Origin: Balneolaceae bacterium
GTDB lineage: Bacteria > Bacteroidota > Rhodothermia > Balneolales > Balneolaceae
Reading direction: 5' to 3'
DNA: 64,000 nucleotides
Assembly (NCBI GenBank): GCA_050117475.1
Contig: JASFMR010000004.1
Location: 274-64,273, forward strand
Part shown: in pieces, positions 1 through 57,597 of the stretch
How the letters are laid out: every line of letters begins with the position of its first letter
Position numbering within the stretch: the stretch's first letter is position 1
Position numbers and translations under genes: made by a program
The notes under the pieces: generated by a model
Database searches by the model: none
What the model was told of the DNA's origin: nothing
The model's input: only the letters and a program-made list of their open reading frames with translations

Positions 1-349
1 GCAAAGCTGCCTCGGCAGAATTAAGTCTTGCAGTAGAAATGGCCAACTGTCTTTCATCCAACAAAGTAGGTGCAGTTGGTTTAACACGGGCAACAATAGT
101 CCCAGAGCGAACATGGTCCCCCACTTCCAGGCCTATTCGCTGAACAGTTCCTGTTACCGGGACCGAAATAATATAACGGTCTTTGACCCTTGTCATACCT
201 TCCTCTTCTATTGTCAATTCCATTGAATTTCGGCTGGCTTTACCAGTATCAACCGTAATGGGATTGGGCCAGAAACCATAAGTCAGCCCTGCTGCTACTA
301 TCAAGGCGATTGTACTAATGCCCAACTGTTTTTTTCTCCTGGAGTCCAT
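1..349 (-). CDS. Efflux periplasmic adaptor (HlyD/MFP family), N-terminal part; runs off window edge
   Basis: Manual translation from ATG at 349: MDSRRKKQLGISTIALIVAAGLTYGFWPNPITVDTG...EEEGMTRVKDRYIISVPVTGTVQRIGLEVGDHV. TM anchor plus biotinyl/lipoyl-like segment; directly downstream of the ABC permease. Not in the ORF track because it is truncated. Confidence 0.85.
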   Translation of the reverse strand, partial: MDSRRKKQLGISTIALIVAAGLTYGFWPNPITVDTGKASRNSMELTIEEEGMTRVKDRYIISVPVTGTVQRIGLEVGDHVRSGTIVARVKPTAPTLLDERQLAISTARLNSAEAAL

Positions 350-353
350 TGAT

Positions 354-2717
354 TTATTCCCTGGTTTTAAGCACTTCGATGAGATTGAGTTTATTCAAAC
401 GTCTTCGCAAAACTACGCTAGACAATAACGCAGAAATAATAACAGTTAGCGCGGCCAGCGCATATGTAGTGGAACTAATATTCAAGGGTATCCGGTAGAG
501 GTCGGTTTGAAGAGACCAGATTATAAAAGCTGTTAGCGCCCATCCACAGGCCATTCCAACCGGAATAGCAGCCAAGACAACAAACCATAGCTCACCCAGC
601 AAGATGTATGATATTTCCCCTCGTGTAAAACCCAGCACTCGCAAACTTGCCAATTCGCGGTTGCGTTCTGAAAGAGAAATTCTGGCATTGTTATAAACAA
701 CACTGAAAGCCGTAGCAGCTGCAAAAAGTGAAACAAAAAATGCCATGATCAACCAAGTCTGAGCCGTAGATTCGTAAAATCTTTGTATAATGCCTTGAGT
801 CGATAAAATCTCTGCTACCCGGGGGCTTTCTTTTAATTCTCGGGTAATTCGCTCTTCGAATGACTTGTCAATATTCAGAAAAGCCCCGGATACCAAACCC
901 TTCTCCGGCAATACCCGGTCTAACTCTTCGAGGGACATGTAACCACTTAGCCCAAAGTATTGGTTCATGAATCCGGCAACGGGAAGGTCTAATGTACGAC
1001 GGCTATTCTCGAGGATTTCGACCCGCAACGTATCACCCGTCTGGAGGCCCAGTATGGTGCCCAGCCTTTGGGTCAGTACAATACCATATTCCGGAAGTGA
1101 CACCTCTTGCTGATTGGCATCAAGCAAAGGCTTGAGTTTTCGATCACGGGGATACGCTTGAATACCGGTTAAGTAAGTGCGATGCCCGAATCGCATTCGA
1201 ACAGGCAAAGACCGGTATTCTTCAGCATAATACACTCCTGGCATGCGTCTCAGCTCGGAAATGGCATGAGAAGAAACCGCATCTTCAAACGATACCGATA
1301 GATCGTAAGGCTGAGCCCGGCGAAACTCAACGTCAACGGCAAAATTTACTGAATCATGGCTCATCCTGCCTATCATAACCAGAGAGGCAGCAAATGCTAT
1401 CCCAATAATACTGAAAACCGCCTTCAGGCGATGTCGGCTTAACTGACGAAGGATCATCTTCGTAGGCTGATCAAGAAAATCAGCGAGTCCAATCTTTTCG
1501 AAGAAATTTTGTTTAAATATCTGAGGAGTTTCTGGAAGCATTCCTTGGGCCGGCGGCAAGACAACTGCACGTCTGACTGCAAAAATAACGCCCGCCAATG
1601 CCGCTCCAAAACTCACCAACACAGCAGCCAGCAACACCCTGGAATCAAGGTGAAACCGCAAAAAGGGAAACCGATAAAAATCCGCATAGACTCCTGCCAG
1701 CAATTTGCCCAAGTACATACCAAGGAACACGCCTCCCGTAAGTCCGATTATGACAATTACACTTACCATTTTTACGTAATGCCAACCGATTTCGGTGTTT
1801 GTGTAGCCAAAAGCTTTAAGAGTCGCTATCTGTCCCTGTTGCGTTTGTATCAGCCTGCCAATTACTACATTCAGAAGAAAGGCCGCCACTCCAAGAAATA
1901 TAGTTGGGATGATTGTAGCCATTTGCCGTAGTTGATTAAATTCTTCGCTGATATAGAAGTGAGACTGCTGGTCTTTTCGTCCGCTTGCTCCCAGCCCTCC
2001 ATAAGGTTCCAGGATATCATCGACCCGTTGGATGACCTCGGCCTCATTTGCCTGGTATGTCAGTGAAGCTGTTATATTGTTAAAAGCCCCTTGCATATCA
2101 TAGGCGGATTCAAGTGCAGAACGTCCCATCCAGATGATAGCAAAACGCTCGAAATCGGGGATAATAGATCCCGGATTGGCCTGGTAAATAAATTCAGGCG
2201 ACAGGCCAACACCCACCAGCTTAATTTCTTTTTTTCGACCGTTTATCACGGCGGTCATCCGATCACCCGTTGTTAAGTGGTGAGCCTGGACAAATGCATC
2301 CCCCACAACGACTTCATTTAATGAATAAGGAGCAGGCATACGGCCTTCGCGTAGATATAAACGGTTCAATACCGGTTCTCCCACGTCCGGAACTGAAATA
2401 ATGAGCCCCCTGATCGGTTCATCAAAGCCTGCAACATCGATATTGGCCCCGGCAAAGATACGTACTTCGATGCGATTTATGCCCGGAATTTCCCTGATCC
2501 GAGATGCTACATTACTGGGAGCCCTCTTAAGGGAAGCAAAGATATTTGAGAAATAGTATTCATTGTAATAGGCCCGCTGGGTGCTTCGCAAGGAATCAAG
2601 CGTACTCAATAACGTCACAAAAGTAGCCACACCACTTACAATCATGATAGCTATAACAAATACCATTGCCCTCATGTTGTTGAGATCCCGAAGCATTTTC
2701 CAGTTTATTGCTCTCAT
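354..2717 (-). CDS. ABC transporter permease, FtsX/MacB-like, duplicated (two periplasmic + two TM modules)
   Basis: 787 aa with two repeats of the FtsX-type signature (QGQIATLKAFGY; RELASLRVLGFTRGEI); follows the ABC ATPase. Confidence 0.9.
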   Translation of the reverse strand: MRAINWKMLRDLNNMRAMVFVIAIMIVSGVATFVTLLSTLDSLRSTQRAYYNEYYFSNIFASLKRAPSNVASRIREIPGINRIEVRIFAGANIDVAGFDEPIRGLIISVPDVGEPVLNRLYLREGRMPAPYSLNEVVVGDAFVQAHHLTTGDRMTAVINGRKKEIKLVGVGLSPEFIYQANPGSIIPDFERFAIIWMGRSALESAYDMQGAFNNITASLTYQANEAEVIQRVDDILEPYGGLGASGRKDQQSHFYISEEFNQLRQMATIIPTIFLGVAAFLLNVVIGRLIQTQQGQIATLKAFGYTNTEIGWHYVKMVSVIVIIGLTGGVFLGMYLGKLLAGVYADFYRFPFLRFHLDSRVLLAAVLVSFGAALAGVIFAVRRAVVLPPAQGMLPETPQIFKQNFFEKIGLADFLDQPTKMILRQLSRHRLKAVFSIIGIAFAASLVMIGRMSHDSVNFAVDVEFRRAQPYDLSVSFEDAVSSHAISELRRMPGVYYAEEYRSLPVRMRFGHRTYLTGIQAYPRDRKLKPLLDANQQEVSLPEYGIVLTQRLGTILGLQTGDTLRVEILENSRRTLDLPVAGFMNQYFGLSGYMSLEELDRVLPEKGLVSGAFLNIDKSFEERITRELKESPRVAEILSTQGIIQRFYESTAQTWLIMAFFVSLFAAATAFSVVYNNARISLSERNRELASLRVLGFTRGEISYILLGELWFVVLAAIPVGMACGWALTAFIIWSLQTDLYRIPLNISSTTYALAALTVIISALLSSVVLRRRLNKLNLIEVLKTRE

Positions 2718-2729
2718 AGGGTCATAGGG

Positions 2730-3467
2730 TTACCATACCAGCTCTTGTGGTGATTTTTTGGCCATATTGCGTTGTACGTCGGCAATCTTACCATCCAATA
2801 TCCGAATCACACGGTCTGCCATACCGGCTATCACTACATTATGAGTAATCAATACCGTACATGTGCCCAAAGTACGATTTACCCTCTCCAGTGCTTCAAG
2901 TACTACGATACCTGTCTTCGAATCGAGTGCACCGGTTGGTTCGTCACAAAGCAAAACCTCCGGATTCTTAGCTATGGCACGAGCAATAGCCACACGTTGC
3001 TGTTCCCCTCCCGACAATTGGGCCGGAAAATGATCCATGCGCTCCCCCAAACCCACGATTTTCAAAGCTTCTGCCGGGTCCATGGGGGCTTTGGCTATCT
3101 CAGTAACAATGGCAACATTTTCCCGGGCAGTAAGGCTTGGAATGAGATTATAAAACTGGAATACAAAACCAACATTTAACCGGCGATACTCGGTCAGTTC
3201 TCGGTCCCCCACATGCGTCAATTCCGTATCGTGATAATAGACACTACCCTCGCTGGCAGTATCCAAACCACCCAATATATTTAGCAAGGTCGACTTACCG
3301 CTACCGGACGGGCCCAGCATCACAACCAATTCGCCGGCATACAATTTAAGGTCTATTCCCCTTAGCGCCCGTACCTGAACCTCCCCCATTTGATAGACTT
3401 TCGTCAGTCCATGTGTAGAAAATATAACTCTGCTTTCTAAATTGGCCGTATTTTGTGGAGCCTTCAT
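2730..3467 (-). CDS. ABC transporter ATP-binding protein (LolD/MacB-like)
   Basis: Walker A GPSGSGKS, signature LSGGEQQR, Walker [13 protein letters not shown]-loop ITH. Confidence 0.95.
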
Positions 3468-3517: not shown

Positions 3518-3653
3518 AATGCTTTACCTGATAATAATTATAGTCATGTAGGTAAATTACTTACAGGCATCTTTATTAAGAAAGCTCTCTTTCATTTCAA
3601 AAAATTCATCCAGTAAGCCCCATTCAATAACCATGAAAATACTACAGGGGCAT

Positions 3654-3872: not shown

Positions 3873-4292
3873 TTGACTAATTCTAGCGAACTTCTTACCC
3901 ATACCGCCGATGTCAGACTCCGGGTCAGTTCTGATTCCTTGCCCGGATTGTTTGAATTAAGTCTTAAAGGCTTAAATCAACTTCTGGTTAGAAATTTTAA
4001 CCAATCAACAGCTAAAGAACGTATCAGTGAATCAATTTCTATCGTTTCTCCTGATACTACCTCCCTCCTTATCGATTTTCTCTCCGAGGTGTTAACACTG
4101 TGCCACCTTCGCAAATCCATTTTCTATGAATTTTCAATTGGGAACATGTCGGACTGTACACTTTCAGCAGTCCTTCACGGGGCAAAGGTGGATGCATTTG
4201 ATAAAGACGTTAAAGCCGTGACTTACCATGAGGCTAATGTCCATATAAATAGTCACGGAGACTGGGAAACGATCATCATTTTTGATATTTAA
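3873..4292 (+). CDS. Archease (RtcB activator)
   Basis: Motifs HTADVRL and DVKAVTYH...IIFDI at the C-terminus; immediately upstream of rtcB; TTG start. Confidence 0.9.
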   Translation: MTNSSELLTHTADVRLRVSSDSLPGLFELSLKGLNQLLVRNFNQSTAKERISESISIVSPDTTSLLIDFLSEVLTLCHLRKSIFYEFSIGNMSDCTLSAVLHGAKVDAFDKDVKAVTYHEANVHINSHGDWETIIIFDI

Positions 4293-4303
4293 TCGTTTAG
4301 GCT

Positions 4304-5749
4304 ATGATTGAACAGGCTGAACTTATAAGGATTGACGAATGCCGTTGGGAAATTCCCAAAACTGTACGCAACGATATGCGGGTTCCGGCTTCTATCTTTG
4401 CTATAGAGCAACTCATCGAAGATATCCTTCAGGACCGAACCCTTGATCAACTTATGAATGTGGCTACTCTCCCGGGCATCCAAAAGACGGCCATTGTGAT
4501 GCCCGACGGCCATGAAGGATACGGCTTCCCCATTGGTGGAGTAGCTGCAATGGATATGAAAAAGGGTGTTATTTCGCCGGGCGGAATTGGTTATGACATA
4601 AATTGTGGAGTACGACTTCTTAAATCGGATGTCTCCTACAATGATATAAAACTTTCCATTGGAGAACTGGCCCACGAGATGTCGCGTATGATTCCTAAAG
4701 GGGTTGGCCGTGGCGGACGCCTGAACCTAACGACTGAAGAAATAGACCAGGTATTACACAATGGCGCTGAATGGGCTATAAAGAATGGTTACGGTATTGC
4801 AGAAGATCTGGAGCATATCGAGTCCAAAGGCCGGCTTGCAAACGCTGATCCTGCTGTTGTTTCCGAAAAAGCCAAACAACGGGGACATGACCAGCTTGGT
4901 ACTATCGGAGCAGGAAACCATTTTGTCGAAATCGACCGAGTAGAATCTATTTACGATTCTAATATTGCAGAAATATTTGGCCTGTTTCCAGAGCAGGTTG
5001 TTGTATTGATACATACCGGATCGCGTGGCTTGGGACATCAAATAGCAACGGATTATCTTCGCCGCTTTTTGAATGCAATGTCCTCATACGGCCTCGAGTT
5101 ACCTGACCGTGAATTAGCATGTGCCCCATTTAATTCGACCGATGGCCAAGAATATTTCAAGGCTATGTCAGCGGCAGCAAATTTCGCCTGGTGCAACCGT
5201 GAGGTCATCACCTGGGAAGTGCGGAAATCCTGGGAATATATCATTAAGCAGCCCGGAAAGAATTTAGAACTCCTTTATGATGTAGCCCATAATATCGCAA
5301 AACAGGAAACCCATCGTCTAGGTGATGATCAGAAGGAATTGATTGTTCACCGCAAGGGAGCCACACGTGCATTCGGCCCCGGCCATCCGGAGATTCCCGA
5401 AGATTATAAAAATGCAGGGCAACCGGTTCTCATTCCGGGAAGCATGGGAACATATTCCTATGTGCTGGCGGGAACAAATGAAAATATGGAGCTTTCGTTC
5501 GGATCCACCTGCCATGGAGCCGGGCGACGAATGTCTCGTACTGCCGCCAAGAAGGCCGTAGATGCTCCTACCCTAAAGAAAGAACTCTTGGCTAAGAACA
5601 TCGCAGTTGAGGCGGGATCATACGCCGGGCTTGCCGAAGAAGCTCCTATTGCATACAAAGACATTGATCTAGTAGTTGAAACCGTCCACCGGGCTAAACT
5701 AGCGACAAAAGTTGCTAGATTAAGGCCTGTCGGGGTTATAAAAGGATAA
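4304..5749 (+). CDS. rtcB: RNA ligase RtcB (archaeal/eukaryote-like, archease-associated)
   Basis: MPDGHEGYGFPIGG, DINCGVR, GNHFVE, HTGSRG, VHRKGA, PGSMG, HGAGR and EEAPIAYK all present. Confidence 0.97.
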   Translation: MIEQAELIRIDECRWEIPKTVRNDMRVPASIFAIEQLIEDILQDRTLDQLMNVATLPGIQKTAIVMPDGHEGYGFPIGGVAAMDMKKGVISPGGIGYDINCGVRLLKSDVSYNDIKLSIGELAHEMSRMIPKGVGRGGRLNLTTEEIDQVLHNGAEWAIKNGYGIAEDLEHIESKGRLANADPAVVSEKAKQRGHDQLGTIGAGNHFVEIDRVESIYDSNIAEIFGLFPEQVVVLIHTGSRGLGHQIATDYLRRFLNAMSSYGLELPDRELACAPFNSTDGQEYFKAMSAAANFAWCNREVITWEVRKSWEYIIKQPGKNLELLYDVAHNIAKQETHRLGDDQKELIVHRKGATRAFGPGHPEIPEDYKNAGQPVLIPGSMGTYSYVLAGTNENMELSFGSTCHGAGRRMSRTAAKKAVDAPTLKKELLAKNIAVEAGSYAGLAEEAPIAYKDIDLVVETVHRAKLATKVARLRPVGVIKG

Positions 5750-5752
5750 CCC

Positions 5753-6859
5753 GTGAAAAACATCCCTTTAACATTATTCTTATCCGGAGACGTAATGAGC
5801 GGCCGCGGTATCGACCAAGTGCTGCCCTATTCCGTCGACCCGCAATTATTTGAACCGCACATTAAAAATGCCAAACGATATGTGGAGTTCGCTGAAAATC
5901 ACTCTGGGACAATTCCCCGTAAAGTTGCCTACGACTACATTTGGGGGGAGGCCCTGAAAGAGCTCAACCGACAAAAACCCCAAGTAAAAATCATCAACCT
6001 GGAAACTTCTATTACCTCCAGCGATAACTGCTGGAATCAGAAAGATATCCATTATCGCATGCACCCTAAAAATGTGGATTTACTCGTAACCGCCGGCATA
6101 GATGTCTGCTTACTGGGAAATAACCATGTTATGGACTGGGGATATGACGGACTCACCGAGACTCTTGATATTCTGAGTGAAAAAAAAATTATGACGGCCG
6201 GGGCGGGTAAAAACGAAACTTCAGCTGCTAAACCGGCTATCATAGAAACGTCGAACGGACGTCTGCTTGTCTTTTCATATGCCACTCAAAGCGCCGGGAT
6301 TCCCACAAGTTGGAAAGCAGAAAGCAACAAAGCAGGGGTCAACTTACTGGAAGATACAGAAATAGAAGGCGTAAAAAAGGTTATTGATGACATCAGTTCA
6401 TTTTACAAGGATAGCGACCGGGTAATATTATCGATCCACTGGGGATCCAATTTTGGTTATGAAATCCCCCATTGGCAACGCGATTTTGCTCACCGCATAC
6501 TGGAAGAAGGTATTGTTGATATCATACACGGCCACTCCTCCCACCACCCCAAAGGAATAGAACTCTATAACGAGCGTTTAATTCTATATGGCTGCGGCGA
6601 CTTGATCAATGATTACGAAGGCATCAAAGGATATGAAGAGTATCGGGATGATCTTTCGCTGCTATATTTTCCCATATTGAGTGCATCCGGGGCGTTATTG
6701 TCTCTCATAATGACTCCGATGAATATCAACGGTTTTCGTTTGCGCAATGCCGTCGAGAAAGATATCCAATGGCTTGCAGACCGTTTAAACAGAGAATGCC
6801 GAAAATTAGAAACTTCCATTTTGAGAACAGATGACGGTCGTTTACAATTAAGCTGGTGA
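5753..6859 (+). CDS. CapA/PGA_cap family metallophosphoesterase-fold protein
   Basis: GDVM, NLET, NNHVMD, IHWG, GHSSHHP and YGCGD motifs; GTG start 3 bp after rtcB. Confidence 0.88.
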   Translation: MKNIPLTLFLSGDVMSGRGIDQVLPYSVDPQLFEPHIKNAKRYVEFAENHSGTIPRKVAYDYIWGEALKELNRQKPQVKIINLETSITSSDNCWNQKDIHYRMHPKNVDLLVTAGIDVCLLGNNHVMDWGYDGLTETLDILSEKKIMTAGAGKNETSAAKPAIIETSNGRLLVFSYATQSAGIPTSWKAESNKAGVNLLEDTEIEGVKKVIDDISSFYKDSDRVILSIHWGSNFGYEIPHWQRDFAHRILEEGIVDIIHGHSSHHPKGIELYNERLILYGCGDLINDYEGIKGYEEYRDDLSLLYFPILSASGALLSLIMTPMNINGFRLRNAVEKDIQWLADRLNRECRKLETSILRTDDGRLQLSW

Positions 6860-6878: not shown

Positions 6879-8525
6879 CTAAAATTTCAATTTCCAAATG
6901 CCAGATGCCTCTGCAAGTTTTATTGCAGATTCGTGGGACATAGAATCGTAATAAGAAACAAACCGTTTGGTTTCCTTACTGTCATAAGGTGCCAGGTTTT
7001 TTGCCCATCTGAAACCAATCGGTTGATACCACAGTTCGACTTCGATATACAATGGCCCGGTAACTTTGCCCACGTCCACGATATAAGTAATGCTGTCCTT
7101 GCCTCCCGTAAAGTCACCATCCTTTCCCGCTCTGCCGTGTACGGCTATATCCTCTTCAGCAGTTGACTTATCGAACCCATCCGGTAGGATTCTGTTATCC
7201 TTGATAAACCTAACGGCTGTAAGCAAGCCTGTTGTTACCTCATCCCCGGGTCCTGCCATTATACTTTCGTAAATTTGTACCTGGTCCGGACTGTCAATCT
7301 GGGAATAATGCTGCTCAAACTTACCGGGATTATCATCATTATCATTTCCGACAATGGAACCATCCGGCCTTAGAGAACCTGATTCAAATAAAATATCCCC
7401 TGACTCATTTTTCACGGTGAAATGAATCCAGGTACGCCGTGACGGATAAGCCGTAGGTAATTTATGACCCGCAAGATTGTCAACGGATAAATACACCAAC
7501 AGTTTATTATTAACCAATTGCAGGGTATCGATTTCAAGGCGGGCAGCCTCATTCTGTAGATGTTCAATAGTCCTTAAAACACCATTTTCCATTTCTCTGG
7601 GTAGAGCTTGAACCCCCAGGTCATTTCTGTACCGATTAAGCATTTTCATCATGAAAAAATTTCCACCGAGAAATGTATGCCTCGAAACCTGTTTCCTTGG
7701 TTGCCCCATGACCGAAGATATGGACACTTCCTCCTTTACCGTAGGCATGTGGCATGACTGGCAACTTTGATTATCTTTGAAACTGCTATGGCGCCATTCG
7801 AGGTAAGGCACCTGTTCAGGTAATTCTCCGATCACTTCTCCATCCGGGCCCAGCGACTCTGTTATCAGGGTATGGCAGGTTGCACACAGTTCAGATGACT
7901 GAATATGCTTGGATTCAGCCTGTAAAAATCCCGAGGAGGAATGCATGATATTCGAAAGGCCGGGATCTACGGCATAAGGTCCATAAACTTCTCGCTGCCC
8001 CATCGGCTTCAAGCTGTCAATTACAAATCGGCCCACAAAACTCTCATAACTTCCCAGCTTTTCTTGTGTTATCTGATGACAACTTGTGCACGAGACCCCG
8101 TCAGCAGCTAATAAATCATTGCGATTAACGGCTCGATTAACCGGTAAATGGGCAAAAATCTTTGCTTTTTGCCCATTGTACTTTGCTTCATAGTGTGACA
8201 TGGGCATATGGCAAGTAGAACATTCATTTTCAATATGAGCTTGAGATTCAGGATGGTCGGTCACTTCACGGCGGACTGCCGCATGCCAATAGGGATCTCG
8301 CGCCGAATTGGCCATCATGGTTGTTCGCCAATCAATTCCAATGGAAACATCTTCTCCCCCCGATGTAATCAACCCATTATGACAACTCATGCATGCATCA
8401 GACGTTTGAAACAGTTGGTGATAAGAGCCGACTGTTGTGTTTGGGTTCATCCCGGGAGTTGACATACTTCCTATAAAAAGAACGATCGCCGGAAATGCTA
8501 ACAGAAGTAATAATCTTTTTACCAT
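6879..8525 (-). CDS. Secreted pentaheme c-type cytochrome
   Basis: Five CxxCH motifs (CMSCH, CSTCH, CTSCH, CATCH, CQSCH). Signal-like MVKRLLLLLAFPAIVLFIG starts at 8525; the track's extra 47 codons overlap the upstream gene. C-terminal heme-free domain contains GHKLPT. Confidence 0.85.
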   Translation of the reverse strand: MVKRLLLLLAFPAIVLFIGSMSTPGMNPNTTVGSYHQLFQTSDACMSCHNGLITSGGEDVSIGIDWRTTMMANSARDPYWHAAVRREVTDHPESQAHIENECSTCHMPMSHYEAKYNGQKAKIFAHLPVNRAVNRNDLLAADGVSCTSCHQITQEKLGSYESFVGRFVIDSLKPMGQREVYGPYAVDPGLSNIMHSSSGFLQAESKHIQSSELCATCHTLITESLGPDGEVIGELPEQVPYLEWRHSSFKDNQSCQSCHMPTVKEEVSISSVMGQPRKQVSRHTFLGGNFFMMKMLNRYRNDLGVQALPREMENGVLRTIEHLQNEAARLEIDTLQLVNNKLLVYLSVDNLAGHKLPTAYPSRRTWIHFTVKNESGDILFESGSLRPDGSIVGNDNDDNPGKFEQHYSQIDSPDQVQIYESIMAGPGDEVTTGLLTAVRFIKDNRILPDGFDKSTAEEDIAVHGRAGKDGDFTGGKDSITYIVDVGKVTGPLYIEVELWYQPIGFRWAKNLAPYDSKETKRFVSYYDSMSHESAIKLAEASGIWKLKF

Positions 8526-8562
8526 AAGAATCCTCGCATCATCATTAGCTGAATCAGTAAAC

Positions 8563-9726
8563 TTACCATCCCTCGAATAATCCCCCGTCAAACCAGTCCC
8601 AGAGAAAATATACCATGAGTTGGGTATCCCGTGACGGATCATCCAAAGGCATCCTAACCCCGACATTCAGCATAATATTTTGTCGTTTATTAAGCGTTAC
8701 CTGCATTTGTGGTACTATATCCCACTGGGTCTGTGCGCCGGATTCCAACTCCCGAGCCCCCAGAAACTCAACCATGGGCGACCACGTACGTCCCCACGCT
8801 CCCTGACTTATACTGCTGCCGATAAGCCCTCGCCAAAAGGCCTCCTCAGTTGCTTTATCTCTTAAAAGCGGCAACTCCATACCTCCCTGGAACTGAACAA
8901 AACTGTTCGCAGGCAGTATCTGCCCAAATGAAAGAAAAGGTTCAATGATCGTGGTACCTTTACCAAAGCCTGTCAGCCGGTCTCCGGTAGGCAAGATCAC
9001 TTCCCCGGTGACGCTGAATATGGTACCACTGCTGAAATTATGATATAAAGCGCGTTTAAAGCCTAGTGCCAAATCTCCCAGTTGGCCTCCATTCCAGTTT
9101 CCGCCGGGATCCTGTCGGAAACCAAAAGGCACTACTAATTCAAACTGGTTACGGGCACCAATACGTTTTTCATAAACAATTTTATTCATCACACTTCCTT
9201 CACCTTCAACATCGATAGAAGAACTCACTACAGCCTCATCTTCCGGGTATGCTTTTTCCGTTACAAGTGCTCTGGGTAAATTCAAATCGCCCCTCGGCCA
9301 GTCATCATCTGTACAGAAAGTGCGTATGTGTTCTATGACGGCTTCCAACTCTTCTTCACTTAGGGTTTCACCAAAAGCGGGCATGTCTTTGGCAAAGCCC
9401 CGTACGGGCCCTCCCTGGTGCGCAATGGCAATCCAATCCGCATCAGGCTCTCGTGTGGCAAAATTACAATCCGAAAGGTCAGGAAGCGGTGTAGCAAACC
9501 CCAATTGACTTTGGGATACGCCTCTTCCTCTAATCCCATGACATGCAGAACAAGCCTTCCGATACAGGAACTCACCCCTATTCGGTTCAGTAATTGTTGT
9601 ATCAGCACCCGTGTTCACAGAAAAAGAATGGGTAACGGTCGTTTGGTTTACTGCCGCAATAAGAAAAATACCAATTATCAATAAGATTGGCCCAAAGGTA
9701 TATACTCTACTATCTCTCATGATCAA
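8563..9726 (-). CDS. Monoheme cytochrome c fused to a predicted outer-membrane beta-barrel domain
   Basis: Signal peptide; class I cyt c domain (GEFLYRKACSACHG...DMPAF...LSEEELEAVIEHI). C-terminal ~230 aa has alternating amphipathic strands (GDLALGFKR, GEVILPTG, EPFLSFG) and an aromatic end (YFLWDWF...W). Barrel assignment is inference. Confidence 0.7.
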   Translation of the reverse strand: MIMRDSRVYTFGPILLIIGIFLIAAVNQTTVTHSFSVNTGADTTITEPNRGEFLYRKACSACHGIRGRGVSQSQLGFATPLPDLSDCNFATREPDADWIAIAHQGGPVRGFAKDMPAFGETLSEEELEAVIEHIRTFCTDDDWPRGDLNLPRALVTEKAYPEDEAVVSSSIDVEGEGSVMNKIVYEKRIGARNQFELVVPFGFRQDPGGNWNGGQLGDLALGFKRALYHNFSSGTIFSVTGEVILPTGDRLTGFGKGTTIIEPFLSFGQILPANSFVQFQGGMELPLLRDKATEEAFWRGLIGSSISQGAWGRTWSPMVEFLGARELESGAQTQWDIVPQMQVTLNKRQNIMLNVGVRMPLDDPSRDTQLMVYFLWDWFDGGLFEGW

Positions 9727-9883: not shown

Positions 9884-9941
9884 GAATAAATAATGTATCT
9901 GTTTGTCATTTTTCACTCATATCCATTTAAAATTAGCATAA

Positions 9942-10355
9942 ATGAAGATAGACACCAGGTTATTGATGATATCCAGCGCTATCTTAATGGGCATGGCCGG
10001 ATTTGCATTCACTTTTTTCCCGGGGGAGATACTAACCTATTTAGGATTTCCGGCCTTCGAAATGGGAAGAATGTTTTTACAGATCACCGGTGCTTTGTAT
10101 TGGGGATTCTCCATTTTGAATTGGACAGCCCGAGCTATAATAATCGGAGGGATTTACAGCCGCCCCGTAGCCTTGGGAAATTTTCTTCACTTTACGGTAG
10201 TAACAATCATGTTACTAAAAATGATAGCCGGGGATCATACTTCGCCCATTATACTAATCGGCGGATTATTTTATGGTCTGTTTGCCATCTCTTTCGGGCT
10301 CGTGCTTTTTAGACACCCGGAACAAGCTGATTCATTCTCTGCAGACCGTAACTGA
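9942..10355 (+). CDS. Hypothetical inner-membrane protein (about 4 TM helices)
   Basis: 137 aa with four hydrophobic stretches; preferred over the overlapping frame 9893-10312. Confidence 0.7.
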   Translation: MKIDTRLLMISSAILMGMAGFAFTFFPGEILTYLGFPAFEMGRMFLQITGALYWGFSILNWTARAIIIGGIYSRPVALGNFLHFTVVTIMLLKMIAGDHTSPIILIGGLFYGLFAISFGLVLFRHPEQADSFSADRN

Positions 10356-10526
10356 AGATAGCGCTGTATATTAATGGCGTTACGTCACTCTTCCGTTGTA
10401 TCTCCTGCCACCCAGTGCCGCTATTTTTGTAAGTCTACCCATTACATCAATCTCAGTACAACGCCTATTGTACCAGGAATCACAAAATCATAATTAGACT
10501 AAAAGCATTAATCTTATGGTCTTATT

Positions 10527-10931
10527 ATGATTGACCCAGAACAAATCAAAACACCGTTTAGCGACAAGGATCTGAAATATTTCAAGAAATTGTTGCTGAA
10601 AAACAGGATTGAAGCCCAGGAAAAGCTTGATAAACTATGGGGTGCTCAAGTGAACCTGGAAGAAGCCGATGATGCCGATATCTCCTCAATAACACATCAT
10701 CTTGGAGATTTTGCGTCTGATGTGCAAGAAGAAGAAATGAATTACCAACTCATTGAACGACTGAGAGAATATATATTGCATATCAATGAAGCACTGGAAC
10801 GCATTGAGAAAAAGACCTACGGCATTTGCCTGGCCACAGGAAAACCCATAGCCAGGGGAAGGCTCGAAGCCGTACCGCATACAAGGTACAGTATTGAGGC
10901 CAAAAACAAAGGATTAGCAGAAGACACATAA
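10527..10931 (+). CDS. TraR/DksA family transcription regulator (single-Cys, likely Zn-free)
   Basis: Coiled coil with HHLGDFASD tip; C-terminal YGICLATGKPIARGRLEAVPHTRYSIEAK. Confidence 0.88.
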   Translation: MIDPEQIKTPFSDKDLKYFKKLLLKNRIEAQEKLDKLWGAQVNLEEADDADISSITHHLGDFASDVQEEEMNYQLIERLREYILHINEALERIEKKTYGICLATGKPIARGRLEAVPHTRYSIEAKNKGLAEDT

Positions 10932-10933
10932 CC

Positions 10934-11167
10934 ATGAAGAATCACCCATATGAACAGGATCCCGACCCGGTATTTCATGAACGTATTCATGTTCTGTCGG
11001 AACGAGGTTATCGCGGCTTTAAAATCACCAACAAACAACAGCATTGGGATGGCCTTAAAGTGACCGCATCGAACAATGCCGGTAAAATAGTAACCTCTGC
11101 AGGGAATACGGAACAGGAGGCCCTGAAGAAGCTGATCGACCAGATTGATTTGATTTTGGATCGGTGA
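10934..11167 (+). CDS. Small hypothetical protein (77 aa)
   Basis: Packed between dksA (2-bp gap) and the PRT gene (15-bp gap); C-terminus has a GNTEQEAL motif. Confidence 0.65.
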   Translation: MKNHPYEQDPDPVFHERIHVLSERGYRGFKITNKQQHWDGLKVTASNNAGKIVTSAGNTEQEALKKLIDQIDLILDR

Positions 11168-11182
11168 AAGTGAAATTGGAGA

Positions 11183-11845
11183 GTGATTATGTTTATCAAT
11201 AGAGAAGACGCAGGCAAAAAACTTGGTAAAGCACTTGATAAATATAAGTCAATGAATCCGATAATCCTGGCTATTCCGAGGGGGGGCATTGAAGTTGGTT
11301 TTTATGCCGCCAAACGGCTGGATTGTGATTTTGAACCAATCGTTATCCGCAAACTAGGATATCCCCAGCAACCTGAAGCAGCATTTGGAGCCGTAGCTGA
11401 GGATGGGAGCCTATACCTTGATCCCTGGTCAAATCAGTATTTGAGCAAGGAAATAATTGAGCGAGTAATTGGTGAAGAAAAGGAAGAAATACAAAGGCGA
11501 ATCAAAGCGTACAGACAAGGGCGCCGCCTACCCGACCTAAAAGACCGAGTAGTCATCTTAGTCGACGACGGTATTGCTTCTGGCGCTACAATATTTGCAG
11601 CATTGACGATGTGTCGCAAACATGAGCCTGAAAAACTTATTATTGCGGCCCCTGTATCCGGAAAAACGCGGCTCACCAAACTCAGCGCGAAAGCGGATGA
11701 ACTGGTCATACTCGAAAAAAGAGAACATTTTTTTGCCGTCTCCGAAGGTTACCGTGAATTCACCAATCTTTCGGATAGCCAAGTCCTTGAATTACTGAAA
11801 CAGTGGCAACAATATTCAAAAAAAGGCGTCCCCCCTGAACAGTAA
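11183..11845 (+). CDS. Phosphoribosyltransferase family protein (Rv0571c/Rv2030c N-domain-like)
   Basis: FINREDAG, LAIPRGG, IRKLGYPQQPEAAFGAV and PRPP loop VILVDDGIASGAT. Confidence 0.9.
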   Translation: MIMFINREDAGKKLGKALDKYKSMNPIILAIPRGGIEVGFYAAKRLDCDFEPIVIRKLGYPQQPEAAFGAVAEDGSLYLDPWSNQYLSKEIIERVIGEEKEEIQRRIKAYRQGRRLPDLKDRVVILVDDGIASGATIFAALTMCRKHEPEKLIIAAPVSGKTRLTKLSAKADELVILEKREHFFAVSEGYREFTNLSDSQVLELLKQWQQYSKKGVPPEQ

Positions 11846-11966
11846 GCATTTACCCCACACCCTTCTTATACCGGTACTTACAGGTAATAACAAAATTTAG
11901 CTCTCACCTATATTTTCAAAATCAGGCTACCCTGCATTATCCTTTAATAAAATGAGGAAAAGTATC

Positions 11967-13604
11967 ATGGCTCATAAAAAATTACTTTTTCAAACCGCCG
12001 CACGTGAAAAAATCCTAAGGGGGGCGACAGTCCTTTTTGACGCCATACGATTTACCCTGGGACCCAAGTCAAAATCCGTTTTGATCGAAAAAAAATGGGC
12101 CAAACCACTGGTTTGCAATGACGGGGTAACTATAGCAAAAGAAATAACCTTAAGAGATCCCGAGGAAAATCTTGGTGCACAGGTACTTAAAGAAGCTGCA
12201 GAACGGACCGGCGACTTAGTGGGTGATGGCACATCTACGTCAACCGTTTTGGCATATACCATCTTTTCTGAAGGTTTAAAAAACGTTGCTGCACGTGCCA
12301 GTTCAATAGAACTCAAACGGGGACTGGATCGGGGCCTGAAAGTAGCTGTGGAAGCGCTCAAAGAAATTTCACGCCCGGTAAAATCCCATAAAGAAAAAGT
12401 GCAGGTCGCCACCATCTCAGCTCATAATGACGCGACGATTGGGGAACTGGTTGCAGAAGCCATTGATAAGGTAGGCTCAGAGGGGGTTATAACGGTTGAG
12501 GAGGCCAAAGGAACTGAAACAATAGTTGAGATCGTCGAAGGAATGCAATTTGACCGGGGATATCTCTCCCCTTATTTCGTTACTGACAGTCAGAAAATGC
12601 AGGTGGAAATCGAAAACCCCTCCATCCTTCTTTACGATAAAAAAATAAGCTCACTAAACGACTTACTTCCTCTGCTGGAACAAGCAGCCAAACAACAGGT
12701 AAGTCTTGTTGTAATAGCAGAAGACGTTGATGGTGAAGCCCTTGCCAGCCTGGTAGTTAATAAACTTAGGGGCGTTTTATCGTGCGTCGCTGTCAAAGCA
12801 CCCGGTTTTGGAGACCGTAGAACCGCCATACTGGAGGATATTGCCCTTTTAACAGGTGGTCAATTGGTCTCAGAAGAAATGGGAATGAAACTGGAAAACG
12901 TAACCATCGAATCACTGGGTAAGGCTCAGCGCCTTATTGTGGATAAGGATACAACCACTATCATTGGTGGAGCAGGTGACAAAGAGGTCATTGATGGCCG
13001 TTGCAATGAGATTCGCATTCAAATGGAAAGGTCAACCTCCGACTATGATAAAGAGAAGCTTCAGGAAAGACTGGCCAAGTTGTCAGGAGGCGTCGGGGTC
13101 ATCCACGTTGGAGCCCCTTCAGAAACTGAACTTAAAAGCCGTAAAGAGGCTTTTGAAGATGCCATCAGCGCCACCAAAGCTGCTATAGAAGAAGGGATCG
13201 TCCCGGGTGCCGGCCTGGCCCTGCTGAGAACCATATCTGCTGTCACAGAAGAGGCTGTTCGTGCCGAAGGGGATGAAAAAACAGGTATTATGATCTTGCG
13301 AAGGGCCCTGGAAACCCCTGCCCGTCAAATAGCAGAAAATTCAGGCGCGGATGACGGCGTGGTCGTAGATAGAATGCTTGCCGGAGATGGTAACATCGGT
13401 TTTGACGCCTCGGTCAATCAATTCGTCGACCTTTTAAAAGCGGGAATCATTGACCCCACCAAAGTCGTGCGCATTGCCTTGGAAAATGCCGTTTCGGTGG
13501 CCGGTATATTACTTCTGACTGAAGCAACCATGACAGAAGTAGAAGAAAAGAAAATCCCGGTTCGGGAAAACGGTGCCCTTGAAGAGGAAGCCATGGAGTA
13601 TTGA
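11967..13604 (+). CDS. groEL: Chaperonin GroEL paralog (no adjacent groES, no GGM tail)
   Basis: [64 protein letters not shown]. Start set at MAHKK after a GAGG RBS. Confidence 0.93.
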
Positions 13605-15401: not shown

Positions 15402-15420
15402 CTCTTTCTATCCAAATTAG

Positions 15421-23662: not shown

Positions 23663-23734
23663 ATAACTCTCCAATTTAAAACTTAACGTTCTCTCTGGAT
23701 ATTGAATGTCCCCGTCAAGCACCAACTAGTATAT

Positions 23735-23748
23735 ATAAAGCATCCCTA
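23735..23748. promoter_or_regulatory. Candidate half box ATAAAGCATCCCTA(CA)
   Basis: CCCTACA half-site upstream of cheB; the other half is weak. Confidence 0.35.
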
Positions 23749-39343: not shown

Positions 39344-39352
39344 AGTGCACCT

Positions 39353-40144: not shown

Positions 40145-40145
40145 G

Positions 40146-40424
40146 TTAGCCTCCGCTTAGTTGAATAACATAGTCCCAAAAAGGGTTGGCAAAAATGAGA
40201 ATCAGCGATACCACAAAACAGTAAATAGCCGTTGATTCCACCATAGCAAGCCCCACGAAGAGTGTCCGGGTAATCGTCGCAGATTCATCCGGCTGTTGCG
40301 CAATAGCTATCAATGCCTGCGATAAAGCCCGCCCCTCTCCCAATGCTGGACCAATTGAGCCGACAGCAATTGTTACTCCCGAAACGATAATCGATACCAT
40401 TCCAATAATACTTACAGCGTCCAT
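40146..40424 (-). CDS. atpE: N-ATPase c subunit with E30/E63-S64-T65-Y68 ion-binding set
   Basis: GPALGEG...QQP...MVESTAIY...FANPF. Confidence 0.95.
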   Translation of the reverse strand: MDAVSIIGMVSIIVSGVTIAVGSIGPALGEGRALSQALIAIAQQPDESATITRTLFVGLAMVESTAIYCFVVSLILIFANPFWDYVIQLSGG

Positions 40425-40467
40425 AATCTTGAGTGTTTAATAATTATTATTATTGATTATTACTTTT

Positions 40468-41172: not shown

Positions 41173-41275
41173 ATATATTTTCTTGACAAATCAGTTACTT
41201 ATATAATCAAAGTACTCATTTTTTTAATTTATATTAGCTAAATCACTTATACACATAAACTTAATATCTGTGCCG

Positions 41276-44985: not shown

Positions 44986-45033
44986 ATCCTATCCTCCTTT
45001 CTAATGGATATGTTCAGTGCCCTTTTCATAAGC

Positions 45034-45348
45034 TCAAATTACCTGCGATTTATTGCTCACTGTCCTCGTGATTACCGTTCGACTTATCAAAAAACCAACC
45101 AAGGCAACTGCCAATGCCTGCCACTGGTGCACCATCTGTAACAAAAGAAAGAACCCAGAGACAACAACAGTTGTACGCAATAAAAAACTTAAAATAAATA
45201 GTAGGTGATAAGATTTACTCTTTGCTGTAAAATGTTTTATAGTTAACCAAAGACCGCCGAAATAAAACGATCCCAGTAGCACCCCTGTTATCAAGCTGAT
45301 TATTATCATTGTTGTTGTGCTCATAAAAAACCTCATTATTTCATTCAC
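45034..45348 (-). CDS. atpR: N-ATPase AtpR subunit
   Basis: GVLLGSFYFGGLWLT...SFLLR pattern; position after atpQ; GTG start. Confidence 0.85.
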   Translation of the reverse strand: MNEIMRFFMSTTTMIIISLITGVLLGSFYFGGLWLTIKHFTAKSKSYHLLFILSFLLRTTVVVSGFFLLLQMVHQWQALAVALVGFLISRTVITRTVSNKSQVI

Positions 45349-45653
45349 TCAATTTCTTTCCCTTCCTGCTTCACCCAATACCAGGCATTCAAACAACCTA
45401 TGGCAATACCTATTACCAATAGCATCAGTGTCCATGAATACTGGCTTTCTGTATTCGAATCGATCCAAATCCCCAGAGCCAGGAACAAAAGCGTAGGAAT
45501 TGCTACCGACCATCCTACAAGTCCGAACATTCCGATTCCAAACCATATGCCTTTTTGTGATTCACGCCTGGCTTTCAGTCTGCGTTTGGATTTATCTCTT
45601 ACGTGCTCCTCAAAACGTTTTTCCTGATCTTCAGATGATTTTTTATCGACCAT
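45345..45653 (-). CDS. atpQ: N-ATPase AtpQ (AtpZ/AtpI-like) subunit
   Basis: GIGMFGLVGWSVAIPT...LGIWID...GCLNAWYWV; start set at MVDKK. Confidence 0.88.
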   Translation of the reverse strand: MVDKKSSEDQEKRFEEHVRDKSKRRLKARRESQKGIWFGIGMFGLVGWSVAIPTLLFLALGIWIDSNTESQYSWTLMLLVIGIAIGCLNAWYWVKQEGKEIE

Positions 45654-45660
45654 GGCCGCC

Positions 45661-47492
<1,832 letters not shown>

Positions 47493-51258: not shown

Positions 51259-51272
51259 AGGGAGATGTCCCT
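51259..51272. promoter_or_regulatory. Candidate response-regulator box AGGGAGATGTCCCT
   Basis: Part of the 16-bp near-palindrome AAGGG-AGATGT-CCCTT, about 40 bp upstream of hsp20. Confidence 0.55.
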
Positions 51273-51356
51273 TTTGTTCAAAACTTAATCCAGCCAAGCC
51301 TTTAGCTATGCAGTATGTTCCTTTTGAAGCCTGTAATCAAAAATGGGTATTCCAAT

Positions 51357-51371
51357 TAGGAAATATCCCTA
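51357..51371. promoter_or_regulatory. Candidate box TAGGAAATATCCCTA(CA)
   Basis: Both half-sites present but the spacer is one base longer (15 bp); upstream of hsp20. Confidence 0.45.
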
Positions 51372-51385
51372 CATCCTAAACCACA

Positions 51386-53594: not shown

Positions 53595-53616
53595 TATGGG
53601 TTATTTTACAGTGCCA

Positions 53617-55369: not shown

Positions 55370-55481
55370 GTTATTCTCCAATATTTTTCCATTGACAGCT
55401 AAACGAATGTTACATAATGCATACAACGTAATTGAAGCTATTTTTACTACGGTTTTTGTAATTCATTGGGAAATAAGGATG

Positions 55482-55525
55482 TAGGGATATACATGACATA
55501 TCTAACAATGGCATAGATTTCCTTA
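55482..55525. promoter_or_regulatory. Pair of oppositely oriented candidate boxes TAGGGATATACATG (55482-55495) and CATAGATTTCCTTA (55512-55525)
   Basis: Each has one good half-site; they resemble each other as inverted copies (TARGGAWATMYATG); divergent promoter. Confidence 0.4.
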
Positions 55526-56258: not shown

Positions 56259-56261
56259 GGA

Positions 56262-56762: not shown

Positions 56763-56765
56763 TGT

Positions 56766-57521
56766 TTAAGCTGTGAGCTTATCAAGCATATTGTCAACCC
56801 AGATGGGATCTACCTTTCTAAGGCGTTGCTTTTTGAGATTCTCCCTCATGATGCGATTTACGACAGGATGTTTTTCTTTTATCCACCGCTCGATTTTGCC
56901 CTTCCCTTTTTCAGGCATTTCAGCCGCTGCAACACTCCAGCAATAGCTTAATCCCTTGCGGAGCACTTCGTAAGCATCGTCCTTTTTATCATCAAAAGCA
57001 ATCATTGAAGCAGTCGCCCAGTCAAGGAATTCAAAGACATGGTCTTTAACCTCAACATCCCGAAGAATATCCGGCTCGCAAAATCCGGCTATGACCGCAC
57101 GCTGCTCCAGTAACGATCCCTCAATCCATGACCGTGCATACTTAAGCAGTCGCTTGCTATTTTTTCGGCCAATCGTTTGCAAAGCCATCGCCACGGCCTC
57201 TCGTACCCGCCATCTGGGGTCATTAGCTCGCTTTCTAAGTTGTCTTAAAAGCCCGCCATCGTGATAATGAGCAAGATATTCCCCAAATCCCAATACGCCA
57301 CAAAAAACCAAGAACACCTCGGGAGTATTTTCAGGGGCTTCTTCGGGATCCAACCGAACATATTTTTTGAAATCCATTAATGTAGCCGTTTCAGCAAAAG
57401 CACGAGCCAATTCTAAATTCCCGCGCTGGCCCGGCAGTCCGGAATACTTCATTAGAAACTCTTCCCAGTTTTTGGGTGATAAATGAAGCAGCTCTTTTTT
57501 ATAACTCCCTATTTTATTCAA
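56766..57521 (-). CDS. HEAT-repeat protein
   Basis: SGLPGQRGNLELA, ANDPRWRVREAVAMALQ; helical repeat character. Confidence 0.65.
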   Translation of the reverse strand: MNKIGSYKKELLHLSPKNWEEFLMKYSGLPGQRGNLELARAFAETATLMDFKKYVRLDPEEAPENTPEVFLVFCGVLGFGEYLAHYHDGGLLRQLRKRANDPRWRVREAVAMALQTIGRKNSKRLLKYARSWIEGSLLEQRAVIAGFCEPDILRDVEVKDHVFEFLDWATASMIAFDDKKDDAYEVLRKGLSYCWSVAAAEMPEKGKGKIERWIKEKHPVVNRIMRENLKKQRLRKVDPIWVDNMLDKLTA

Positions 57522-57583
57522 AATACTCCCCCATCTTTATGATTATTACCAACAGGATAGTATTTATTCTGCTAAAATATTAT

Positions 57584-57597
57584 CAGGGAAAACCCTA
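57584..57597. promoter_or_regulatory. Response-regulator box CAGGGAAAACCCTA(CA)
   Basis: One mismatch from TAGGG-N4-CCCTA; about 65 bp upstream of the HEAT gene; rightmost box found. Confidence 0.6.

Follow-up and report, generated by a model that had tools for sequence, protein, structure and literature searches.

Do the roughly 40 survival genes that lie beside a haem-based oxygen sensor in a member of the Balneolaceae form one regulon, and if so, which signal drives it? The genes, which code for ion pumps, chaperones and proteins of RNA and DNA repair, are carried by a 64,000-nucleotide stretch (the window) of contig JASFMR010000004.1. The window is nearly the whole of this contig (C4) and represents 1.9% of the host genome, a metagenome-assembled genome of 145 contigs. 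An initial annotation had described positions 1 to 57,597 as an equivalent, in an unrelated phylum, of the DosR dormancy regulon of Mycobacterium tuberculosis and of the low-oxygen-activated (lxa) locus of Burkholderia cenocepacia. We compared six-frame open reading frames (ORFs; list threshold, 100 amino acids) with Pfam and NCBIfam. All gene families that had been named were found in their places, among them archease, RtcB, CapA, a phosphoribosyltransferase (PRT), a DLH-like hydrolase, an M50-CBS protease, a P2 ATPase and Hsp20. In the following, G labels denote genomes of relatives, C labels contigs of the host genome and L labels contigs from metagenomes or other lineages.

The answer that we consider likely is that the window contains most of a flexible stress-survival island that acts as one regulon under a haem-PAS kinase/NarL-type circuit. 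We found no paper on a circuit of this type in Bacteroidota or on an oxygen regulon governed by a haem-PAS/HisKA_3 kinase.

A palindromic operator in the island and its relatives

About 10 of the approximately 15 transcription units of the island are preceded by a 19-bp palindrome, TGTAGGG-N5-CCCTACA. The motif was first spotted by eye, in that the hsp20 upstream regions of six congeners share ATGTAGGG...CCCTA, and a first position weight matrix (PWM) included sites of the window. A second matrix, PWM2, was rebuilt from 27 relatives' sites only. With PWM2, 17 matches of at least 16 bits were found in the whole genome; six of them are in the window, all six intergenic, where 0.32 were expected (Poisson, 1e-6). 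The pattern GGGA-N4-TCCC and its spacing variants gave no useful genome-wide enrichment, and the wider palindrome was required.

The operator TGTAGGTAAATTACTTACA (3547..3565; 23.6 bits) lies in the spacer between the ABC and archease genes and matches the pattern TGTARG-N7-CYTACA exactly. Two operators precede the kinase gene, TGTAGTGGAATCCCCTATA at 53578-53596 (22.4 bits) and a second one at 53858-53876 (15.0 bits), from which autoregulation is predicted. The operator TATCAGGGAAAACCCTACA (57581-57599; 17.8 bits) is placed in the HEAT/deoC spacer, 69 bp from the start of the HEAT gene and 125 bp from that of deoC, and TGTAGGGATATACATGACA (55480..55498; 17.3 bits) in the spacer between the divergent genes for a Met/Gln-rich (MQ-rich) protein and the DLH-like hydrolase, 63 bp 5' of the former. 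The hsp20 operator ATTAGGAAATATCCCTACA (51355-51373; 17.2 bits) is accompanied by a proximal palindrome, GGGAGATGTCCC, at 51260-51271, and this promoter region (51260..51373) is conserved in six genomes. A site at 23778 precedes the cheB-like gene (16.4 bits). Lower scores were obtained for the sites 5' of the genes for the M50-CBS protease (16680; 12.4 bits), DUF5335 (32980; 12.0 bits), the DksA-like protein (10428; 11.6 bits; conserved 5' of the PRT gene in G001) and GroEL (11841; 11.4 bits) and for a weak site in the spacer between a cytochrome c gene and an ORF of unknown function (9805; 9.5 bits). Measured from the start codon of the gene next downstream, most site centres stand at 62 to 153 bp; larger distances were found for the distal kinase site and for the 3547 site on its archease side.

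The same sites recur in relatives. We scanned 75-kb regions around the regulator orthologue in five congeners and found strong sites 5' of the orthologous genes for the kinase, Hsp20, DUF5335, cytochrome c, the outer-membrane barrel, the MQ-rich/BCAM0308 proteins, the AI-2E transporter and HEAT/deoC. G012 alone has about 14 sites of at least 15 bits in 48 kb, with a background of about 0.4 per 75 kb; two strong ones (20.3 and 18.9 bits) precede cytochrome orthologues, one precedes the AI-2E orthologue, and others lie at the orthologues of the MQ-rich and outer-membrane barrel genes. The HEAT/deoC site is kept in G004 (22.0 bits), G011 (17.5 bits) and G022 (17.5 bits). Upstream of the kinase gene, the exact pattern is present in G002, G004 (TGTAGGGAATTTCCTTACA; 24.1 bits), G005, G006, G013 and G023, and the site was scored by PWM in G001, G012, G016 and G022. 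In G001, the genes for DLH, BCAM0308, archease, RtcB, CapA and PRT form one operon on a contig separate from that of the regulator, and the operator is still found 5' of it; one site there is conserved with position 10428 of the window.

We searched the exact pattern in 41 genomes, with the reversed pattern as the control. In the 20 regulator-bearing genomes of the genus, 39 matches were obtained versus 17 for the control, and in six regulator-less genomes 4 versus 3. The regulator gene has at least 14 exact matches within 50 kb (p ~2e-11), and six matches stand directly 5' of the kinase gene. In genomes from three further families of the order, near-perfect sites (22.9-26.5 bits) come immediately after the kinase-regulator pair, which is 50-59% identical there. 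Kinase homologues of another genus and of a different family of the class also have sites beside them. A congener with a kinase homologue and without a regulator orthologue had no site nearby. No site of at least 12 bits was found in BCAM0308 contexts from other phyla, and the operator is lineage specific. Since the palindrome is shared, is conserved 5' of orthologues and travels with the kinase-regulator pair, the view that these genes are one regulatory unit, a locally clustered regulon with its own sensor as initially claimed and not a chance neighbourhood, is well supported in silico.

Further operators are scattered over the host genome. They precede the genes for an Hsp20 paralogue (C16) and an SRPBCC protein (C131/C138) and, on C78, a paralogous operon for a membrane-fusion protein (MFP), ABC ATPase and FtsX permease as well as an Acs-E1-E2 operon. 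On C48/C128, a bactofilin-like/MMPL operon and a DUF1761 gene stand behind sites of 23.6 and 14.6 bits. C48 and C128 overlap by 127 bp, with the MMPL gene spanning their junction, and this block adjoins the island in sister species, although it is on other contigs in the host genome. The ends of C131 and C138 overlap by exactly 127 bp as well, and the two contigs of each pair are therefore neighbours in the chromosome. On C91 (9027-10492), a 19.8-bit operator is followed by small ORFs and the gene of a Crp-like protein with a cyclic nucleotide-binding domain, perhaps a second tier of the circuit comparable to FixK. Because of these outside sites, the C48/C128 block and an ABC operon that itself stands behind an operator, the regulon is not confined to the island and the left border of the island lies outside the window. 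The left limit drawn at position 1 thus does not stand: the first ORFs already belong to the island, and the contig ends 273 bp to the left of the window.

The haem-PAS kinase and its regulator

The conserved core encodes a single sensor, a FixL-like haem-PAS kinase (52069-53463, minus strand), and a single DNA-binding protein, the adjacent regulator (51386-52057, minus strand). Pfam and PDB searches bear out their earlier description as a haem-sensor kinase and a NarL-type regulator. The kinase has a PAS-PAS-HisKA_3 architecture without a GAF domain. Its PAS-B is about 50% identical to the haem domain of FixL, and comparison with the FixL structures of B. japonicum and S. meliloti (8JS5, 1D06) gave E values of 1.7e-34 to 3.3e-33. 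When PAS-B was aligned to 8JS5, 1D06 and 1DP6, the proximal-His segment ILMPEPHRSNHDDYVRRY and the distal-Arg segment HIIGLRR were found to be kept, and the FixL pocket patterns ILMPEP.R..HD.Y..RY and HIIG..R are retained. PAS-B is a predicted haem-binding O2 sensor domain.

The transmitter is not of the FixL type. It matches HisKA_3 (PF07730), with DesK-like matches, and not HisKA (PF00512), and only this HisKA_3/HATPase part resembles DosT. The regulator consists of a REC domain and a LuxR/GerE helix-turn-helix domain; its best match in the PDB is DevR (3C3W; 101 bits), followed by VraR and NarL (88-92 bits; VraR 92, NarL 89) and FixJ (5XSO; 60 bits). Of the three residues K179, K182 and N183, which we take to be DNA contacts of DosR, the first is kept and the other two, in the recognition helix, are changed to E and S. 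The pair is therefore a hybrid that combines a FixL-type input with a DosS/NarX-type transmitter and a NarL/FixJ-type output. Orthologues of the regulator were found in 19 of 24 congeners and, for the order's other families, in 4 of 16 genomes, and kinase homologues in 23 of 251 Bacteroidota genomes. It is probably this NarL-type protein that regulates the regulon.

With the FixL-FixJ systems of rhizobia and Caulobacter, the pair shares the haem-PAS with its pocket residues, the PAS-A/PAS-B arrangement of B. japonicum FixL and a partner with REC and a LuxR/GerE-type helix-turn-helix. It differs in the transmitter, which is of the DesK/NarX/DosS type, in the lineage (Bacteroidota) and in its output: a large cargo is apparently controlled directly via an own operator and not via FixK, although a Crp-like gene stands behind the C91 operator. 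Within the window itself, Pfam gave no Crp/Fnr gene.

Gene content and borders of the island

At the left end of the window is a MacAB-type efflux operon (2..3467, minus strand) with genes for an ABC ATPase (2730-3467), an FtsX/MacB permease (354-2717) and an MFP (2-349), of which only the C-terminal end is present since the gene is cut by the window and contig end. Its operator, the strongest of the window, is 89 bp 5' of the ABC start. The ABC, FtsX and MFP proteins are 65%, 39% and 42% identical to a MacB-type system in an lxa-like locus of an organism with a GC content of 70% (L060), which also encodes universal stress proteins (USPs), hemerythrin, BCAM0308, PhaC, a Crp regulator and a PAS-HisKA_3/NarL pair. 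The 65% identity of the ABC ATPase to L060:14077-14769 is far above cross-phylum expectation, and the MacB-type module may have been acquired by horizontal transfer.

Divergent from it runs the operon for archease (3873-4292; Rv2630 is the archease of M. tuberculosis), RtcB (4304-5749) and CapA/PGA_cap (5753-6859), together 3873..6859 on the plus strand. A unit on the minus strand (6879..9726) codes for a cytochrome c (8563-9726) and a multihaem cytochrome (6879-8666). The next unit (9893..13604, plus strand) has the ORF of unknown function, the gene for a DksA/TraR-type zinc-finger protein (10527-10931), a small ORF and the genes for the PRT (11183-11845) and a second GroEL (11952-13604). The small ORF (10934-11167, plus strand), between the DksA-like and PRT genes, encodes 77 amino acids, is unannotated and falls below the threshold of the ORF list. 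The M50-CBS metalloprotease (15421-16536) and PolX (13644-15401) are encoded in one unit on the minus strand (13644..16536).

All genes from here to that of the MQ-rich protein (17088 to 55426) are on the minus strand. They start with P-type ATPase 1 (17088-19661; Mg type IIIB) and P-type ATPase 2 (19754-22444; P2A-like), the latter being part of the conserved core in relatives. A P2 ATPase of the Rhodothermales-like contig L058, encoded next to BCAM0308 and DUF5335, shares 55% identity with it. At 10001-14315 of L058, the genes for BCAM0308, this P2 ATPase, DUF5335 (47% identical) and a cytochrome c form one co-directional block, which suggests a conserved four-gene module to which no function is assigned. 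The core block of the island (22523..32888) comprises the genes for DUF5335 (32562-32888), a GH94 cyclic beta-glucan synthase-like protein of 2879 amino acids (23826-32465) and a CheB-like REC-methylesterase (22523-23725). It is syntenic in all relatives examined, the CheB-like gene being a constant member beside the giant glucan synthase; no other chemotaxis gene was found in the window. DUF5335 and the regulator co-occur (17/3/1/5; Fisher, p=0.0045). Then follow an H+-type (IIIA) P-ATPase 3 (33100-35697) and an AI-2E family transporter (35819-36916).

The N-ATPase operon (36913..47471) is ordered atpD-C-Q-R-[insert]-atpB-E-F-A-G. It agrees with the N-ATPases described by Dibrova, Galperin and Mulkidjanian (2010) in the presence of AtpR and AtpQ (PF12966, PF09527), in the gene order atpDCQRBEFAG, in the ESTxxY motif and in its occurrence alongside an F-ATPase, which is encoded here on contigs C24 and C25. 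The c subunit AtpE (40146-40424) carries ESTAIY, and ESTxxY is the Na+ signature of c subunits (PMC6688271). The operon of the window differs in being interrupted by genes for a Na+/H+ exchanger (43807-44985) and a P2B ATPase (41276-43846), both on the minus strand. This insert is absent from G001, G012 and G016, where atpR and atpB are adjacent. It is specific to this species, from which a further contig that carries it, L033, is known in a metagenome. Since PF09527 also matches AtpI of normal F-ATPases, only the second, longer match per genome was counted; on this basis the N-ATPase was found in 8 of 25 congeners, all of them regulator bearing, and it lies 5.7-7 kb from the regulator gene wherever the contig allows a check. 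Within the genus, the N-ATPase is thus tied to an oxygen-sensor regulator, a context that, as far as we found, is undescribed for N-ATPases.

Beyond the N-ATPase operon are the genes for the phosphoenolpyruvate synthase PpsA (47505-49916), an SDR (49936-50685) and Hsp20/alpha-crystallin (50768-51220), with a hairpin 3' of hsp20. The hsp20 gene is directly downstream of the regulator gene in all congeners examined, and the order Hsp20-(SDR)-PpsA-N-ATPase is kept in G001, G012 and G016. Upstream of the kinase gene are those for a MetA-type outer-membrane barrel (53999-54874) and the MQ-rich secreted protein (54896-55426). The 535-bp spacer between barrel and kinase genes (53464-53998) contains two related elements of about 75 nucleotides, each with a GC-rich hairpin, GGGGATGAG...CTCATCCCC; one of them precedes a T-run on the minus strand and is terminator-like. 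These elements had no Rfam match and no further copy in the genome, and an Rfam scan of the whole window gave zero matches. On the plus strand follow the genes for the DLH-like hydrolase (55602-56258; a weak Pfam match of 30 bits) and for a protein of 166 amino acids (56262-56762), which is a true member of the BCAM0308 family (NCBIfam NF040826, lxa_BCAM0308; 203.9 bits versus a cut-off of 100). The gene for a HEAT-repeat protein (56766-57521, minus strand), together with the operator in its spacer to deoC, marks the right border.

In all, the window encodes four P-type ATPases (two P2-type, one H+ type IIIA and one Mg type IIIB). Its GroEL, PolX, Hsp20 and ATPase are second copies in the genome, the housekeeping GroEL being encoded on contig C77. 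N-ATPase, cyclic glucan synthase, PolX, GroEL and cytochromes, named initially as extensions of a DosR-like set, were all found. The GC content is near 44% along the window without a shift, and no tRNA, integrase or transposase was detected in it; we therefore reject the reading as a mobile element. The host genome has 11 SusD/RagB matches, which place it in Bacteroidota.

The right border was placed correctly: from 57715 on, the flank consists of deoC, two aldehyde-dehydrogenase genes and the genes for SPOR, YchF, a metallophosphoesterase and NusB, and this deoC-nusB flank is conserved in three sister species. An ORF within it (60260-61129; 289 amino acids) covers the N-terminal half of an aldehyde dehydrogenase fold; since it is conserved over its full length (81-83%) in the three sister species, it is probably a real short protein and not a pseudogene. 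Three close relatives have a 17-20 kb version of the island against the same flank, made up of P2 ATPase, CheB-like, glucan synthase, DUF5335, P-ATPase, Hsp20, regulator, kinase and HEAT genes. The island of G012 has additional genes for three USPs, Kup, MgtC, a P1B ATPase, DUF892, a flavodoxin and an MMPL protein, and operators adjoin several of these, all three USPs among them. RtcB was found in only 3 of 25 congeners; in G001 it is unlinked from the regulator, and in one RtcB-bearing genome (85% complete) no regulator orthologue was found. Synteny is kept for the core block and the flank; the content of the island is fluid.

Signal, related systems and physiological role

In its anatomy, the closest known system is the lxa locus of B. 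cenocepacia J2315 (BCAM0275a-BCAM0323). It comprises 50 genes, its Anr-type motif occurs at 17 intergenic points, and exposure to 6% O2 induces it (Sass et al. 2013, PMC3721108). Its ABC transporter, Hsp20 and cation-ATPase genes are upregulated 15- to 240-fold at 6% O2 (PMC3721108). Common to both are a large cluster of about 50 stress and maintenance genes, one palindrome repeated at many intergenic points, further co-regulated loci elsewhere (here, the window has about 12 sites, and others are on C128, C48, C78, C16, C131 and C91) and incomplete synteny between species. Shared families are BCAM0308, Hsp20, the cation P-type ATPase, ABC/MFP/outer-membrane transport, cytochrome c, a Zn protease and two-component systems encoded in the locus. 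The control differs: the lxa motif is of the Anr/FNR type (TGA-N6-TCA) with CRP-family regulators implicated, whereas TGTAGGG-N5-CCCTACA goes with a FixL-PAS/HisKA_3 kinase and a NarL-type regulator. The lxa locus is also rich in genes for USPs, polyhydroxyalkanoate synthesis, class II ribonucleotide reductase and alcohol/acetate metabolism, all absent from the window, where no Usp domain was found with Pfam. The island in turn adds the N-ATPase, three further P-ATPases, RtcB/archease, CapA, PRT, PolX, GroEL and the cyclic glucan synthase.

A low-oxygen context is suggested because of the BCAM0308 membership, the homology to the lxa-like MacB-type ABC system, the induction of lxa by low O2 and the USPs behind operators in G012. 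We infer low O2 as the signal and activation as the sign of control. In the mechanism that we propose, the soluble kinase with its FixL-type haem-PAS and HisKA_3 domains would sense O2, possibly also NO or CO, and, by analogy with FixL, in which the deoxy form is active, would phosphorylate the adjacent NarL/FixJ-type regulator when O2 is scarce. A dimer of the regulator would then bind the 19-bp palindrome 5' of the start codons and activate the operon that encodes it, along with about ten other transcription units. The output would comprise protein protection by Hsp20, the second GroEL and the M50-CBS membrane protease; RNA and DNA repair by RtcB with archease and by PolX, along with the DksA-like factor; and envelope functions of the cyclic glucan synthase, CapA, MacB-type efflux and the cytochromes, plus PEP synthase. 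If respiration fails, the Na+ N-ATPase, the four P-type ATPases and the Na+/H+ exchanger would serve an ATP-driven ion homeostasis, in which pumps for Na+, H+, Mg2+ and Ca2+ would hold the ion gradients. Such a cargo would fit the survival of an aerobe whose respiration fails.

Several observations weigh against this mechanism or its extent. Some sites of the window are weak (9.5-12.4 bits), and none was found 5' of the SDR-PpsA-N-ATPase stretch or of P-ATPases 1-3, whose place in the regulon is deduced from conserved adjacency. The motif was first seen by eye and the first PWM held window sites, a circularity that is mitigated by PWM2, the exact-pattern test and its reversed control. That the regulator would bind TGTAGGG-N5-CCCTACA is deduced from their linkage. 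None of the ten Usp matches of the host genome has a convincing upstream operator, and several strong sites outside the window precede genes without an evident link to stress, such as those for an FGGY kinase, DUF6544 and a PreT-like protein. A kinase that is on when deoxy is borrowed from FixL, and other haem sensors are activated by O2. Finally, the Na+ and H+ pumps, the Mg and K transport of relatives and the cyclic glucan suit ionic or osmotic stress equally.

This last point leads to the alternative that survives best. The regulon could exist as described and be triggered by salt, alkaline pH, cation limitation or energy depletion, with the haem-PAS kinase reporting the redox or energy state or being active in its ligand-bound form. 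The cargo is indeed dominated by the Na+ N-ATPase with its ESTAIY motif, the Na+/H+ exchanger and P-ATPases of the H+, Mg2+ and Ca2+ types, and it includes the AI-2E transporter and the cyclic beta-glucan synthase, the products of which are known to protect against osmotic stress. Kup, MgtC and a P1B ATPase are added in G012, and the roles proposed for N-ATPases in the literature are salt and pH homeostasis (PMC6688271). However, the sole sensor of the conserved core is a close homologue of the FixL haem-PAS with the residues of the O2 pocket kept, and BCAM0308, the MacB-type ABC system, Hsp20 and the USPs of G012 have counterparts in loci for which induction by low O2 has been shown by experiment. 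We therefore consider an ionic, osmotic or energetic trigger unlikely, although it would be compatible with the low-oxygen reading if ion pumping answers respiratory failure.

Far less probable is a variable region that gathered accessory stress genes without common control, the palindrome being bound by another factor or being a local repeat. The strong differences in gene content between species would fit such a neighbourhood, as would the rarity of RtcB, its presence in a genome without a detected regulator orthologue, the units without a site and the motif search that began by eye. But the sites are conserved 5' of orthologues in rearranged islands, the exact-pattern matches, controlled by the reversed pattern, cluster around the regulator, the motif accompanies the kinase-regulator pair across families, the unlinked RtcB operon retains its site, and no other DNA-binding protein is encoded in the conserved core.

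The overlap with the DosR regulon had already been remarked on for lxa by its authors (PMC3721108). Members of the DosR regulon include RtcB (Rv2631), a CapA-like protein (Rv0574c), a PRT (Rv0571c), the M50 protease Rip3 (Rv2625c), the P-type ATPase CtpF (Rv1997) and the alpha-crystallin HspX (Rv2031c) (PMC5309233). All these families are represented in the island; in both systems a haem gas-sensor kinase with HisKA_3 is paired with a NarL-family regulator, autoregulation, predicted for the island, would be common to both, and each has a palindromic operator with GGG/CCC cores, of which a promoter often carries two copies. The DosR box reportedly reads TTSGGGACTWWAGTCCCSAA (Park et al. 2003). 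Its cores are 8 nt apart (GGG-N8-CCC) and those of the island operator 5 nt, the haem is bound by GAF in DosS and DosT and would be bound by a FixL-type PAS here, two recognition residues differ, and the DosR genes are scattered in nine blocks, in contrast to what is mostly one island. The hallmark cargo of DosR, that is, USPs, nitroreductases, NarK2/NarX, NrdZ, Tgs1 and ferredoxin, was not found in the window. Because sensor domain, operator and hallmark cargo differ, we reject orthology and regard the island as analogous to the DosR regulon; the overlap with DosR and lxa that had been claimed holds for families (RtcB, CapA-like, PRT, M50, P-ATPase, Hsp20, BCAM0308 and the MacB-type ABC system), but the regulon is not a DosR equivalent. 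A true orthologue of DosRST, inherited or transferred as a unit, is therefore the least probable explanation, disfavoured already by domain architecture, even though DevR is the best solved relative of the regulator (by only about 10 bits over VraR and NarL) and 8-9 gene families are common at family level (DosR list, PMC5309233). Overall, the locus appears to be a real clustered regulon, probably oxygen responsive, and a rewired analogue of DosR of fluid content.

A wider reading would join these systems. BCAM0308, the MacB-type ABC system, DUF5335 with the P2-ATPase, Hsp20 and the RtcB-archease-CapA-PRT-DLH set may be parts of a respiration-failure toolkit that is shared horizontally across phyla and wired in each lineage to a different oxygen sensor, here by a direct circuit, so far undescribed, of FixL-haem-PAS/HisKA_3 kinase, NarL-type regulator and operator. 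We put this forward tentatively, as a possibility that we are more inclined to doubt than to accept. If it is true, RtcB, archease, CapA, PRT, DLH and BCAM0308 would be one functional module of RNA or nucleotide repair, which M. tuberculosis has in two parts, Rv0571c-0574c and Rv2630-2631. The N-ATPase would then pump Na+ at the expense of ATP under the control of oxygen and keep the membrane energised once respiration has stopped, and N-ATPases would thereby gain a defined physiological role.

Three aspects of the island appear to us of most interest, namely, the new operator, the coupling of the N-ATPase to an oxygen-sensor regulator and the joining in a single operon of genes that M. tuberculosis has in two DosR blocks. 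With the island, an operator that can be tested and a candidate regulator are at hand in a phylum for which we found no published oxygen-sensing two-component regulon. From the strict linkage of the N-ATPase to this regulator, in 8 of 8 genomes, a physiological role that can be tested follows for an enzyme class of debated function, and the DLH-BCAM0308-archease-RtcB-CapA-PRT operon suggests that several uncharacterised proteins of the DosR regulon act together. Gene sets of the tuberculosis dormancy regulon and of lxa recur, clustered with their own sensor, in environmental Bacteroidota, with a different regulator, sensor and operator, and this recurrence argues for a widely shared survival toolkit that has been rewired repeatedly.

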